From IMG/VR virus record IMGVR_UViG_2740892423_000017: a stretch of DNA of 4,307 bases; one strand, given 5' to 3'. Every line of letters starts with the position of its first letter. Position 1 is the first letter of the stretch. A program made the position numbers and the translations under genes. Of this stretch, positions 468 to 4,307 are shown in pieces. Source of the stretch: a virus (taxonomy: Duplodnaviria; Heunggongvirae; Uroviricota; Caudoviricetes). Below the pieces are notes generated by a model. The model saw only the letters and a program-made list of their open reading frames with translations, was not told the DNA's origin and searched no databases.

Positions 468-831
468 AAATGTAGAAATGGCGCTTAGCTCCGCAATCGG
501 AGAGCAGGTGGCAAAGATTGCTGGTGCTGTGTGGATTCATAACCTTCATTCTACTGGTGAAGAGAAAATGGCAATTCAGACGCCAGAGGGACGCACCATT
601 ACTACATCTCTGAAGCCGTCAGATGTTTGTGATCTGATTTGCGCATTCATGTACCCAGCAATGAGGACTGTCCACGGCGATAAGTGGAAACTTGCGACAA
701 CCGCTGAATTTGATATGTGGCTAAACAATGATGGCATGCTGACTGATTACGGAATAACCAAGTGGCAGATGCTGGTTAGCCATATCGCAAACGCTATAGA
801 CCACGTGGGGTACGGTGATGCGAAACATTGA
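460..831 (+). CDS. hypothetical small protein (123 aa), second small ORF, translationally coupled on both sides
   Basis: ATG at 460 overlaps the upstream stop by 8 nt, with GGGAGG (448-453) as SD. Stop TGA at 829-831 lies 14 nt inside the primase ORF. No recognisable domain. Confidence 0.7.
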   Translation: MRENVEMALSSAIGEQVAKIAGAVWIHNLHSTGEEKMAIQTPEGRTITTSLKPSDVCDLICAFMYPAMRTVHGDKWKLATTAEFDMWLNNDGMLTDYGITKWQMLVSHIANAIDHVGYGDAKH

Positions 832-3274
832 TCTTATCCGTCAGGTTATCAGTGCGTCTGAAAACAACTGGCCTCATGTGCTGGGCTGCCTGAACATAAA
901 TGTCCCTGACTCTCCGCGCCGTCATGCTCCCTGCCCTGCATGTGGTGGAAAAGACCGTTTCAGATTCGACGACAACGGGCGCGGTAGCTTTATCTGCAAC
1001 CAGTGTGGCGCTGGTGACGGGCTGGATTTAATCAAGCGGGTTAACAACTGCGACACCACGGAGGCGGCACAGCTTGCCGCTGACGTGCTGGGTATTGATT
1101 ACCGGGCAGCGCAAACCGACCCGGCGGCAGCGAGCCATAGAAGAGAGCAACTGGAAGCCGACCGCCAGCAGCGTGAGCAGGAGCGCCAGAAACAGGCAGC
1201 AGAGGACGCAGAGCAGCGAAGGGCTACGTTTGCCCATCTGTATGCCGGAATGCGCCAGAGTGCCACACAGGGCGAATCTGATTACCTGCAATCAAAAGGG
1301 CTGACCGGGTTTAACTATCCGGTTATGCCGGATGGTTCGTTATTGCTGGAGCTGGTGGACGAATCCGGCGCAGTGGCAGCAGCGCAAACCATTACACCGC
1401 AGGGAGAGAAGCGACTCCTGACAGGTTCAGCAAAGCGCGGGGCATATCACGCCGTAAACGCGCCAGAATCGCCGCAGAGCGTTTTAATTGCCGAGGGGCT
1501 GGCTACCGCTCTGTCTGTTCACCTGATGCGCCCGGACGCGCTGGCAGTGGCAGCAATTGACGCCGGGAACCTGATCCACGTTGCCGGAGTAATGCGCCGG
1601 AAATACCCGCAGTCGCAAATTATTATCGCCGCAGATAACGACCACCCTACAGCAGCCTCCGAAACCGGAGCCACCAACATCGGGAAGGAGGCCGCAGAGA
1701 AAGCAGCTTTATCCGTGGCTGGCTGGGTATCGCTGCCACCGACTGACAGCAAAGCTGACTGGAACGACTACCACCAGCAACACGGGCTGGAAGTCGCTAC
1801 GGCTGCGATTAACGATTCGATGTACCGGCCGCAGGGGGAATGCGTGAAACCACAACTACAGGCCATTGCTGGCGGTAAATCCCGCCGTAAAGCCGATGTC
1901 GGAGATATTGCACAAATGGCAGCCAGCCAGAAAGCGCGGTTGCTTTCATCTCGATGGGATATGTTGGCGGTTAACCCAGATAGTGGCACTGTTTACTGCT
2001 ACGAATCTGGCGTATGGGTGAAGCTACCAGACAGCGAATTAGAAAGGGTTATGGTGGCAATTTTCGACGAGCACGAAGCCCACTACACCGAAAAGGGGAT
2101 TAAATCGGTTGTCGCAACCATGAAGCTGCAAATACCGGTAATTGGTGAGCGGAGCGGGGATCTGATTGGTTTTGATAACGGCGTTTATGACCTCGCTACG
2201 CAGACGTTTTCCGCCCATTCGCCGGGTAACTGGCTGATGAACCACAATGGGATCACCTACACCCCGCCAGCGCCGGGGGAAAATATTACCACCAGCGCCC
2301 CCAATTTTACCCGTTGGCTGAATCATGCAACGGCTGGCGACCATCATAAGGCCGAGCGTATCAAAGCAGCCTTGTTTATGGTGCTGGCGAAGCGTCACGA
2401 CTGGCAGCTATTCATTGAGATAACTGGCGAGGGCGGCAGTGGGAAATCCGTATTCAGCAGCATAGCCGTATCACTGGCAGGTGAGCACAACACAGCCAGC
2501 GCCAGCATGGGAGCGCTAGACACAGCCAGAGGGCGGGCGCAGCTTGTAGGAAAAAGCCTGATTATCATGCCAGACCAGACCCGCTATGTTGGCGAAGGCG
2601 CAGGGATAAAGGCCATTACAGGCGGCGACCCAGTAGAGATTGATGGTAAGTATGAAAAGCAGTTCACCACCGTGCTAAATGCCGTTGTTCTCGCAACCAA
2701 CAACGAACCAATGACCTTTACCGAGCGCAACGGGGGCATTGCCCGCCGCCGTGTGATATTCCCGTTCGATAATCCGGTATCAGAAGCGGAGAAAGACCCC
2801 GACCTGACAGCGAAGATCTGCCGTGAAATGCCGGTAATTATTCGTCACTTGCTGGCAATGTTTGCCGACCAGAACAAAGCTAAAGCGCTTTTAATCGAGC
2901 AGCGCGATTCCGCAGAGGCGTTGGGCGTTAAGCGCGGGACAGATCCGGTCATAGACATGTGCGCGGCCTTGTATTTTATGAACGAGCCGAAGGGAATGAT
3001 GATGGGGGGAGGAACGTGGGCAGGACAGCCAGAGCCGAGAACTTACCTGTATCACCTTTATTTGGCCTTTATGGAATATCACGGGCTAGGGAAGCCGCTT
3101 TCCGTCAACAAGTTCTCACGGGCGATTAAATCAGCCGCCAGAGAATACAGGGCTAACTACCTGACACGCAGCATTAACGGCAGAGCGCAGACGAACGTTG
3201 GGATCAATGAGTTGGCGGAGGAGTTTATACCGCGAGCATATGGCAGCAGCACCGCCGAAGGGGGTGATGAATAG
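818..3274 (+). CDS. DNA primase-helicase, phage P4 alpha-like (N-terminal Zn-ribbon, TOPRIM primase, D5_N-like region, SF3/P-loop NTPase, C-terminal putative origin-binding region)
   Basis: An 819-codon frame from GTG 815; I prefer ATG 818 (GGGG at 807-810 as SD). Zn-ribbon C-x2-C...C-x2-C (CPACGGKDRFRFDDNGRGSFICNQCG, nt ~932-1006). TOPRIM glutamate in IAEGLATALS (GAG at 1493-1495), resembling the EGYATA primase motif of P4 alpha as I recall it, and acidic cluster IIIAADNDH (~nt 1620-1645). FDNGVYDL motif typical of D5_N/P4-family primase C-terminal domain. Walker A GEGGSGKS (nt 2426-2449) and Walker-B-like LIIMPD. Stop TAG 3272-3274. Confidence 0.93.
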   Translation: MRNIDLIRQVISASENNWPHVLGCLNINVPDSPRRHAPCPACGGKDRFRFDDNGRGSFICNQCGAGDGLDLIKRVNNCDTTEAAQLAADVLGIDYRAAQTDPAAASHRREQLEADRQQREQERQKQAAEDAEQRRATFAHLYAGMRQSATQGESDYLQSKGLTGFNYPVMPDGSLLLELVDESGAVAAAQTITPQGEKRLLTGSAKRGAYHAVNAPESPQSVLIAEGLATALSVHLMRPDALAVAAIDAGNLIHVAGVMRRKYPQSQIIIAADNDHPTAASETGATNIGKEAAEKAALSVAGWVSLPPTDSKADWNDYHQQHGLEVATAAINDSMYRPQGECVKPQLQAIAGGKSRRKADVGDIAQMAASQKARLLSSRWDMLAVNPDSGTVYCYESGVWVKLPDSELERVMVAIFDEHEAHYTEKGIKSVVATMKLQIPVIGERSGDLIGFDNGVYDLATQTFSAHSPGNWLMNHNGITYTPPAPGENITTSAPNFTRWLNHATAGDHHKAERIKAALFMVLAKRHDWQLFIEITGEGGSGKSVFSSIAVSLAGEHNTASASMGALDTARGRAQLVGKSLIIMPDQTRYVGEGAGIKAITGGDPVEIDGKYEKQFTTVLNAVVLATNNEPMTFTERNGGIARRRVIFPFDNPVSEAEKDPDLTAKICREMPVIIRHLLAMFADQNKAKALLIEQRDSAEALGVKRGTDPVIDMCAALYFMNEPKGMMMGGGTWAGQPEPRTYLYHLYLAFMEYHGLGKPLSVNKFSRAIKSAAREYRANYLTRSINGRAQTNVGINELAEEFIPRAYGSSTAEGGDE

Positions 3275-3287
3275 TTTACCCCTGATT

Positions 3288-3306
3288 TATCCCTACCTAT
3301 CCCTAC
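3288..3306. repeat. iteron cluster 1: two direct copies of TATCCCTAC (3288-3296, 3298-3306)
   Basis: Direct reading: ttatccctacctatccctac, copies spaced 10 bp. Confidence 0.8.
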
Positions 3307-3346
3307 AAAGTCATTTAAGGCCAGTAATGACGGGGCTTGTAGACTG

Positions 3347-3392
3347 GTAGGGATATATATATTTATCCCTACATATCCCTACATATCCCTAC
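3347..3392. repeat. iteron cluster 2: inverted copy GTAGGGAT (3347-3354), 10-bp AT-only spacer (3355-3364), then three direct copies of ATATCCCTAC (to 3392) at 10-bp phasing
   Basis: Direct reading: GTAGGGAT-atatatattt-ATCCCTAC forms a perfect 8-bp inverted repeat around a pure A/T spacer, a plausible DNA-unwinding element. It is followed by ATATCCCTAC ATATCCCTAC. Confidence 0.8.
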
Positions 3393-3430
3393 TAAACAAG
3401 AAGCCACGCATAACCGTTTTTTGGTATTTG

Positions 3431-3459
3431 GTAGGGATAGGTAGGGATAAGTAGGGGTA
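3431..3459. repeat. iteron cluster 3: three reverse-orientation copies GTAGGGATA, GTAGGGATA, GTAGGGGTA at 10-bp phasing
   Basis: Direct reading: gtagggatag gtagggataa gtaggggtag. A degenerate forward copy (tgCCCTAC, 3469-3476) follows after an A-rich spacer. Confidence 0.8.
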
Positions 3460-3515
3460 GAAAAACAATGCCCTACCAGCCTGAAAGCCGCGCCACATAT
3501 GGGTTTTATCGATTG

Positions 3516-3533
3516 GTAGGGATTGGTAGGGAT
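3516..3533. repeat. iteron cluster 4: two reverse-orientation copies of TTGGTAGGGAT at 10-bp phasing
   Basis: Direct reading: gattggtagggattggtagggata. Lies about 35 bp upstream of the next ORF, so it may overlap that gene's promoter. Confidence 0.75.
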
Positions 3534-3565
3534 ATTACACCCCCAAAAAGATTCACAGGGGGGGT

Positions 3566-3775
3566 ATGATTCAGCTAAAGGGCGAAAAAATGAACGAACA
3601 TCATAAAAAGCAGATCGAAGTTGTTAGAGAGATTGAAGCGCAGGGGTTCACCGCGCAGGAGGCGGCGGCCTTGTTACTGGCTGGCGAATTATCCCGACTA
3701 AATGACAGCATGGACTACCTGAAACGAGCCGCTGGGAATATTGACGACACGTTATCAAGAATGGAGTGCGCTTAA
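3566..3775 (+). CDS. hypothetical small protein (69 aa from ATG 3566; 61 aa if translation starts at ATG 3590), predicted mostly helical, translationally coupled to the downstream SSB-like gene
   Basis: ATG 3566 sits 1 nt after a G7 run, which is poor SD spacing. The in-frame ATG at 3590 has AAGGG (3578-3582) 7 nt upstream and is the more likely start. Stop TAA 3773-3775 overlaps the next ATG (TAATG). No recognisable motif; the stretch FTAQEAAALLLAGELSRL could be a DNA-binding helix, but that is speculative. Confidence 0.6.
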   Translation: MIQLKGEKMNEHHKKQIEVVREIEAQGFTAQEAAALLLAGELSRLNDSMDYLKRAAGNIDDTLSRMECA

Positions 3776-4209
3776 TGACAGCACAAATTTCAGCATACGG
3801 GCGGCTGGTGGACGAGCCGCAGGTAAAACAGACCAGCAAAGGCACAAGCATGACGCTGGCACGCATGGCGGTATCAGTGCCGTGCCATAACGCAGACGAC
3901 GGGCAGGCGACGCTATGGCTTGCCGTAACTGCCTTTGGCAGACAGGCCGACGCACTGGCAAAGCACCACAAAGGCGACCTTGTGAGCGTGGCGGGTAACA
4001 TGCAGGTGAACCAGTGGACAGGCCAGAACGGCGAAACGCGGCAGGGCTGGCAGGTTATCGCAGACAGCGTAATCAGTGCGCGAACGGTGCGACAGGGAGG
4101 CAAAAATAGCCAGCGGGGACAGGCGACGGACGCGCTGAGACGTGCGCAGCAGTCAACCCGTGATGAATACGACCAGCGCCCACCATTCGACGATGAAGCG
4201 CCATTCTGA
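3775..4209 (+). CDS. ssb: single-stranded DNA-binding protein (SSB-like OB-fold protein, 144 aa) with acidic C-terminal tip ...FDDEAPF
   Basis: ATG 3775 overlaps the upstream stop, with GGAG (3763-3766) 8 nt upstream; the ORF track's 3766 start is a GTG 9 nt further upstream in the same frame. The translation aligns by eye to E. coli SSB: [19 protein letters not shown] vs [40 protein letters not shown] vs [38 protein letters not shown] vs LRTRKWTDQSGQDRY. The tail PPFDDEAPF matches the SSB tip MDFDDDIPF. The linker is much shorter than in E. coli SSB. Confidence 0.85.
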   Translation: [144 protein letters not shown]

Positions 4210-4219
4210 GGGGGGGGGG
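4210..4219. repeat. G10 homopolymer tract in the 15-nt gap between the SSB stop and the next ATG
   Basis: Direct reading: tga-GGGGGGGGGG-tgaac-ATG. It is positioned where the Shine-Dalgarno of the downstream gene should be. Confidence 0.9.
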
Positions 4220-4224
4220 TGAAC

Positions 4225-4307
4225 ATGGTAAACGACAGCAAAGCTGAGGATCTGGAAGCAAAAGGGCTGTACCGACGCGCCGCCGCGCGATGGATGGAAG
4301 TCATGCT
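4225..4307 (+). CDS. 5' end of a gene running off the window (27 codons visible); possible PerC-family small transcriptional regulator
   Basis: ATG 4225 lies 5 nt after the G-run and the frame is open to the window end: MVNDSKAEDLEAKGLYRRAAARWMEVM. The segment AE-LE--GL-RRAA-RW--V matches what I remember as the conserved N-terminal signature of PerC/Pch-like regulators. This is recall, not a search result. Confidence 0.45.
   Translation, partial: MVNDSKAEDLEAKGLYRRAAARWMEVM

Follow-up and report, generated by a model that had tools for sequence, protein, structure and literature searches.

The question raised by this locus is what a gene for a protein that binds single-stranded DNA (an SSB), with a C-terminal tip of the bacterial host type, does in a mobile element. 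The gene, ssb, is found in a 4,307-nt stretch of DNA recorded as viral (Caudoviricetes; IMG/VR record IMGVR_UViG_2740892423_000017), and this whole stretch is referred to here as the window. A first-pass annotation, made from the DNA letters alone, had noticed the gene and proposed several roles for it. The window constitutes the replication module of a phage satellite of the Gram-negative phage-inducible chromosomal island (PICI) type, not of P4 proper, and the SSB is probably a canonical, accessory factor of that module.

The encoded protein is a canonical member of the bacterial-type SSB family. It scores 62.7 bits with Pfam PF00436 (cutoff 26; E = 3.7e-17) and 62.4 bits with NCBIfam TIGR00621 (cutoff 53.95), and it also matches PHROG 44 (E = 1.8e-37), named “single strand DNA binding protein”, and 26 solved SSB sequences in the PDB. 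An AlphaFold2 model of the single chain, made with an alignment of 27 sequences, displays an OB fold at residues 1–103 (nt positions 3775–4083, + strand), i.e. a beta-barrel with one helix, at a pLDDT of about 85–94 (81–94 when averaged by block). When this model was compared with the PDB by Foldseek, the top 50 matches were all bacterial SSBs (E about 1e-8 to 1e-9, probability 1.00, target-normalised TM-score 0.66–0.80). The SSB OB fold that the first-pass annotation had read from the sequence is thus borne out, and both the profile searches and the structure prediction place the protein in the SSB family, not in an unrelated one.

The protein was compared with the E. coli chromosomal SSB (EcSSB; P0AGE0). 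The two proteins show 23% identity and differ in length (144 aa in the window, 178 aa in EcSSB). They share the OB fold, an acidic tip ending in Pro-Phe, an aromatic residue at position −7, and the aromatic residues W54, F60 and W88 of EcSSB, which are present as W48, F54 and W81 in the window protein and are invariant in its family. It is very likely that the protein works as an SSB that binds single-stranded DNA (ssDNA).

The ssb open reading frame (positions 3775–4209, + strand) begins with an ATG at 3775, ends with a TGA at 4207–4209 and encodes 144 aa. A GGAG sequence is situated 8 nt 5′ of the ATG, and a direct reading of the sequence shows that the ATG overlaps the TAA of the preceding open reading frame (TAATG). 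A GTG at position 3766 was considered as an alternative start and was discarded because every homologue begins with MTAQI. The OB-fold codons, compared with those of 16 homologous genes, give dN/dS values of 0.08–0.32; therefore ssb is under purifying selection. It is a real, conserved gene. On the opposite strand, a 218-aa open reading frame (window positions 3648–4304, − strand) covers ssb and the small open reading frame that precedes it. This was rejected as a gene because it is without family support and lies opposite a gene under purifying selection, and in all likelihood it merely results from the high G+C content of the coding strand.

The tip of the protein comprises residues 136–144, PPFDDEAPF, followed by the TGA (positions 4180–4209, + strand). 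It aligns residue for residue with MDFDDDIPF of EcSSB, with F138–F144 equivalent to F171–F177, so that DDEAPF stands where EcSSB has DDDIPF. Counts for the tip and for the tail before it were made on 149 full-length close relatives. A C-terminal Phe is found in 138/149, Pro-Phe in 118/149, and in 141/149 the last eight positions are without a basic residue. In the wider family (315 clusters at 50% identity, E <= 1e-10), most full-length representatives end in an FDDxxPF-like sequence. The tip is conserved although the tail that precedes it varies. The suggestion of an intact, host-like acidic tip therefore holds, by alignment with EcSSB and by the Phe end in the relatives. The presence of such a tip on an SSB of a mobile element is to be expected and is not surprising.

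Upstream of ssb is an open reading frame for an 819-aa primase-helicase of the P4 alpha/D5 type (positions 815–3274, + strand), identified by Pfam, TIGR01613 and phrog_2249. Its domains are a Zn-ribbon, Toprim, D5_N, DUF5906 (P-loop) and a Pox_D5 C-terminal domain. The match to TIGR01613, “P4 family”, is barely over the cutoff (108.8 bits against 108.7), and that to phrog_2249 has an E-value of 8e-149. The protein is 93% identical to a protein of an E. coli island.

The primase-helicase gene is followed by an iteron origin (positions 3288–3534) with ATCCCTAC repeats in two opposed sets and an AT-rich core at about 3354–3365. Between positions 3289 and 3533 there are 10 exact copies of ATCCCTAC and one copy with one mismatch. 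They keep a 10-bp phase; the + strand carries five of them and the − strand six. In the whole window 16 matches are present where 2.4 are expected, and none of 200 shuffles had as many. The origin is conserved in two related islands (L001 and L002, described below). Mapped origins of Gram-negative PICIs consist of two iteron sets around an AT-rich region, located after pri-rep (PMC6092414), and the window displays this arrangement, i.e. a primase-helicase and then two iteron sets that flank an AT-rich region.

The position of ssb had been described as directly after the origin. This needs correction, as the last iteron ends at 3533–3534 and a small open reading frame of 69 aa (positions 3566–3775, + strand; possibly 61 aa from an ATG at 3590) intervenes. 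It is this open reading frame whose TAA overlaps the ssb ATG. It has no family match, and its type was found again, with 96% identity, only in Shimwellia pseudoproteus (L022). The slot between origin and ssb is a variable one. In other islands it is occupied by at least five unrelated small open reading frame families of 69–132 aa, e.g. L001 15112–15414, L048 7212–7592 and L050 9753–10004, and in the examples found the stop of the slot open reading frame overlaps or abuts the start of ssb.

The best DNA match of the window, at 91% identity, is to E. coli chromosomal islands, and a megablast search with the full window found no match among 50,697 phage records. L001 and L002 are islands that occupy ~12.5 kb between yicC and dinD. 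Their genes are arranged in the order tyrosine integrase, helix-turn-helix (HTH) regulator, AntA/B, DUF4222, Ash/Icd-like, small open reading frames, primase, a hypothetical protein, SSB and then PerC/hypothetical proteins, and all island genes but one are co-oriented. An integrase with an AlpA-type regulator, mostly co-oriented genes, a size of ~10–15 kb and the lack of a complete set of structural and lysis genes of phages are features located outside of the 4.3-kb window; they are found in its closest complete relatives, L001 and L002, and in L050, L051 and L053–L055. Eight annotated islands (seven from E. coli and one Klebsiella episome) carry, in this order, an integrase (int), HTH, Icd-like, DUF4222, replicase, small open reading frame, SSB and PerC or capsid-like genes. 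This island context supports the view that the SSB is encoded by a mobile element, within its replication module.

The replicases of the SSB-carrying islands are of at least three types: P4-alpha, RepA helicase and a primase family. The roxA-phoQ islands of O157:H7 and of strain JNE082640 have the same SSB lineage in the same position together with a RepA-family helicase, and the O157:H7 roxA-phoQ island also carries PerC, capsid, decoration and terS genes. In an island between cspD and clpS, the same SSB lineage is found beside a primase-family protein.

Two further islands show other arrangements. In L051 (NZ_CP172134.1 1186713–1207076), the SSB island is situated within the major capsid gene of a lambda-like prophage, of which an N-terminal and a C-terminal half remain as pseudogenes. 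This arrangement is the “helper-embedded PICI” configuration (PMC10111431). L048 (NZ_CP033626.1, K. pneumoniae) is a 22.9-kb circular sequence of the same island type that was deposited as a plasmid; its genes include those for an integrase, a primase-helicase, SSB and PerC, as well as one for superinfection immunity and one for a tape measure. L048 is probably an excised, replicating satellite episome. The circular and the helper-embedded copies are indirect hints that such islands may be induced, replicated and transferred with a helper phage. A side observation comes from L055, an island at the yicC-dinD site that was read at its dinD end: a ProQ/FinO-family gene (7467–7934) is located between ssb and perC and represents another variable cargo slot adjoining the SSB.

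The linkage of the SSB to a replicase extends beyond E. coli. In ~37/45 loci from different Enterobacterales species, the SSB gene is 0.4–3 kb downstream of a primase gene on the same strand. Replicase, iteron origin and SSB are linked in 8/9 annotated island contexts. The ninth is EcCIMP1, a PICI for which induction and transfer by phage Kapi1 have been demonstrated in experiments (PMC11773190), and this island is without an SSB. Of the roles that had been proposed for the gene, support of the element's own replication is the one best supported by this context.

The ssb lineage is present in 1804 of 5426 complete E. coli genomes, at up to six places per genome, and 2348 of the 2350 places are chromosomal. 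A tblastn search with the SSB against the 50,697 phage records gave matches of at most 33% identity, the best full-length match being 28% identical, and among these records there is no match from an enterobacterial phage. Because close phage relatives are absent, the SSB lineage is regarded as satellite-associated. A phage or prophage origin of the SSB was dropped, as the tblastn matches are only distant and non-enterobacterial. In a tblastn search of 72,556 plasmids, the lineage was found in only 29 records. Two of these were examined; both replicons are small, circular and non-mobilizable, and one belongs to the same island type.

Truncated or frameshifted copies of ssb are found in several species loci (L035, L039, L041, L042 and L045–L047). 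Together with the lack of the gene in EcCIMP1, they would fit a passenger gene that has no present function for the island or is decaying. In the window, however, the open reading frame is intact, the dN/dS values are low and the tip is conserved, and the gene is found in a third of complete E. coli genomes. A passenger is thus the most improbable of the explanations considered here.

The preferred explanation, that the SSB is an accessory replication factor of the satellite, can be given as a proposed series of steps. Induction of the island by a helper phage would lead to transcription of a rightward operon consisting of the small open reading frames, the primase-helicase, the 69-aa open reading frame, ssb and perC. 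The P4-alpha-type primase-helicase would bind the ATCCCTAC iterons, melt the AT-rich core and unwind the DNA. Translational coupling to the upstream small open reading frame would allow the island SSB to be made in step with replication. The SSB would then coat the exposed single strands by way of its OB fold (W48, F54, W81), and the FDDEAPF tip may recruit the host proteins that read the chromosomal SSB tip, e.g. the chi subunit of DNA polymerase III (Pol III) and PriA. The outcome would be a private SSB supply for the island during joint replication of helper and island.

The steps of this proposal have different foundations. Coating of ssDNA at the origin is predicted from the fold and the conserved aromatic residues. 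That the tip may engage host proteins is suggested by its sequence match with the EcSSB tip, together with what has been described of the SSB interactome (Shereda et al. 2008, cited in PMC11541004). Gene order and the potential for translational coupling suggest co-expression with the replicase. The oligomeric state, the partners of the tip, the timing of expression and the benefit to island replication are points that we infer.

Several observations weigh against this explanation or restrict it. The first-pass annotation had pointed to conserved Trp/Phe positions in an alignment with the E. coli protein. This is correct for the equivalents of W54, F60 and W88 but not for that of W40, which is an invariant Cys (Cys37). 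In addition, the EcSSB tetramer-interface residue His55 is replaced by Leu49. As the W40 and His55 equivalents are not kept, the binding mode and the stability of the oligomer may differ from those of EcSSB. EcCIMP1, a verified PICI with ORF113 and ORF123 genes (see below) that are 98% identical to those of the window, has no SSB, and the rep gene and ori of EcCICFT073 are by themselves able to replicate a plasmid in DH5alpha (PMC6092414). Because an island exists without the SSB and a cloned PICI rep-ori replicates in E. coli, the SSB looks accessory, not essential. A simple scan of the window for promoters and terminators gave nothing above shuffle expectation, and the operon structure is for this reason deduced from gene order only. 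The literature searched holds no functional study, biochemical or genetic, of a PICI or satellite SSB.

A different role has been suggested in which the protein acts as a decoy. The tip, or mixed tetramers, would divert host SSB-interacting proteins such as chi, PriA, RecQ and ExoI from the replication of the helper or the host, which would help the satellite to outcompete its helper. The tip closely mimics the chromosomal one and is conserved, the lineage is confined to satellites with no better full-length phage match than the distant one given above, and PICIs are known to interfere with their helpers at other steps (PMC6739421). However, a conserved tip is normal in any working bacterial SSB, and because any such SSB keeps its tip, this feature does not discriminate between a decoy and a replication role. 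The gene is also located within the replication module and not in a packaging or interference module. A decoy function is accordingly considered unlikely.

The region between the OB fold and the tip, residues 104–135 (positions 4084–4179, + strand), is a short Arg/Gln-rich tail. It consists of 32 aa, compared with 57 aa in EcSSB, and contains 9% Gly, 0% Pro, 19% Arg and 19% Gln with a net charge of +3. It is without the Gly/Pro-rich character of the EcSSB linker, which is Gly/Gln/Pro-rich. A previous description of the linker as almost absent is therefore overstated; the tail is shortened and of a different composition. In the AlphaFold2 model residues 104–144 are disordered, with a pLDDT below 50, and a helix at 117–126 is weakly predicted.

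Within this tail is a conserved motif, GQATDAL(R/N)RA(Q/K)Q, at residues G115–Q126 (nt positions 4117–4152, + strand). The motif is kept in 118/149 relatives, while flanking tail residues are variable, with insertions and deletions. Other islands have an alternative tail module, APGWE(I/V/L)Y(N/Q)TP(D/E). Both tail types, GQATDAL(R/N)RA and PGWExY, are found on islands with ~90% identical primases (L002, L016, L018, L019 and L022). The presence of two tail types beside such similar primases points to recombination between the OB-fold and tail parts of ssb. The window SSB itself looks like a mosaic, on comparison of its sequence, the OB domain being of the E. coli type and the tail of the Citrobacter/Enterobacter type; in a collection of 5.8 billion protein sequences, the closest protein is at most about 83% identical to it.

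The conservation of a tail motif amid an indel-rich tail, and the existence of a second conserved tail module, raise the question of whether the tail is an adaptor to the island's own replication proteins. The motif or the PGWExY module would in that case bind the island primase-helicase or another island protein, and the SSB would be a dedicated loader or processivity partner. The distribution of the modules does not favour such a replicase-specific contact, because both are found beside ~90% identical primases and SSBs of this one type stand behind replicases of three families. No correlation between tail type and replicase type was apparent on informal comparison. In addition, the pLDDT of the helix is below 50, and close relatedness among the proteins counted inflates the apparent conservation. 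A dedicated adaptor is thus very unlikely.

SSB genes are also carried by conjugative plasmids (F Ssb and other leading-region SSBs). These are likewise borne by mobile elements, have a host-like tip and supplement the host pool. Plasmid SSB genes are located in the leading region, with psiB and anti-restriction genes as neighbours, and their expression takes place from the single strand that enters the cell (PMC11541004). The ssb of the window, unlike these, belongs to an integrated satellite, where it lies behind a vegetative origin. A reading of the gene as a leading-region plasmid SSB was rejected, as its context is that of replicase, origin and PerC and nearly all of its E. coli places (2348/2350) are chromosomal.

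A plasmid-like function could nevertheless be envisaged, in which the SSB shields ssDNA, damps RecA and the SOS response, or titrates or triggers defence systems such as Retron-Eco8, Hna and DRT10. Plasmid SSBs have been linked to SOS inhibition and ssDNA protection (PMC11541004), and some defence systems specifically sense phage SSBs, Retron-Eco8 not being activated by the host E. coli SSB (PMC13402713). However, the Retron-Eco8 trigger described in PMC13402713 is T7 gp2.5, from which the bacterial-type OB fold of the window protein differs. Genes for psiB, ardA or anti-defence functions were adjacent in 0/9 contexts examined, neighbouring defence genes were not seen either, and a PADLOC search gave no match for the SSB or the small open reading frames. 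(Weak DRT matches of the primase in PADLOC span only its N-terminal residues 49–163.) The island presumably enters the cell packaged as double-stranded DNA and not by single-strand transfer. A protective role, or one in modulating SOS and defence responses, is quite unlikely on these grounds. The more general proposition is improbable as well. It holds that a satellite-specific SSB lineage, whose short modular tail joins the internal motif to a host-mimicking tip, would serve as a weapon or a shield in a conflict among satellite, helper and host, and would either divert the SSB interactome of the host from the helper to the satellite replisome or modulate SSB-sensing defence.

The closest known relatives of the window SSB are those of other Gram-negative PICIs, including helper-embedded PICIs (PMC10111431) and islands such as the O157:H7 roxA-phoQ island. 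These are of the same family, with 61–81% identity over the aligned stretch. They occupy the same position (replicase, origin, small open reading frame, SSB, PerC/late genes) and occur in the same Enterobacterales hosts. The ssb of the window differs from them in that it is situated behind a P4-alpha-type primase-helicase and the rare 69-aa open reading frame.

Satellite phage P4 has a primase-helicase that shares its domain plan with that of the window, where the P4 family cutoff is just reached, and an origin with short iterons, as in the window. P4 relies on the host SSB. The annotations of L001, L002 and L048, which are complete related islands, list no sid, psu or delta gene (for capsid size and transactivation).

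In EcCIMP1, the ORF113 and ORF123 counterparts are 98% identical, and the N-terminal half of the primase is 74% identical. Its left arm (int, HTH, AntA/B, DUF4222, Ash/Icd) is the same as that of the window-like E. coli islands, and PerC and pRiA4b-ORF3 are also shared. It differs in having a DUF927-type helicase half, no SSB, and DNA-ejection-like genes after the primase.

With respect to previous knowledge, these genes already carry the RefSeq annotation “single-stranded DNA-binding protein”. A 2023 study assigned to the PICI “Replication” category those primase, SSB and DUF5906 genes whose locations coincide with mapped origins (PMC10111431). This category assignment is the sole mention found; the other PICI papers in the literature searched do not refer to an SSB. 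The window SSB is thus a further member of a family for which annotation exists and which published work has mentioned, and its interest is limited to the biology of a very common satellite gene. The PICI life cycle is currently described in terms of int, alpA, pri-rep, ori and packaging functions. Should the SSB raise satellite replication to a measurable degree, or change that of the helper or the host, it would be a new component of this life cycle, and the islands would offer a natural system for the sharing of SSB-tip interactions between competing replicons. If it is merely a spare SSB, nothing changes.

The remaining features of the window are as follows. Two conserved island genes precede the primase-helicase. 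ORF113 (positions 126–467, + strand) matches phrog_37628 (E = 6.5e-50). ORF123 (positions 460–831, + strand) overlaps both ORF113 and the start of the primase gene and has no family match in Pfam, NCBIfam or the PHROG profiles. Both have their 98% identical counterparts in EcCIMP1, as mentioned above.

The primase-helicase is a mosaic. Residues 1–353, the Zn-ribbon/Toprim region, are 74% identical to the TOPRIM/DUF927 protein of EcCIMP1 (L052 18539–21295), and the C-terminal helicase part (D5_N/DUF5906) belongs to a different family from its EcCIMP1 counterpart. Many species loci match the primase-helicase only across residues 1 to about 350–480.

In the gap between the last iteron and the small open reading frame there is a C5...G7 segment (positions 3540–3564, ACACCCCCAAAAAGATTC..GGGGGGGTA). 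It is kept in L001 and L002 although the open reading frame that follows it is replaced there. A hairpin predicted at this segment is not significantly better than those of shuffled sequences (z = −1.9). The segment may be a part of the origin or a regulatory site. An Rfam search of the window gave only sub-threshold miRNA/snoRNA matches, which are attributable to the inverted repeats in the origin.

The spacer between ssb and perC contains a G10 homopolymer (positions 4210–4219, + strand) in the Shine-Dalgarno region of perC, where relatives carry G3–G6. This run may make the Shine-Dalgarno region prone to slippage, or it may be an artefact of sequencing. It is followed by the first 27 codons of a gene for a PerC-family regulator (positions 4225–4307, + strand), which is cut by the end of the window; all 27 encoded amino acids are identical to those of the PerC-family protein of L002.

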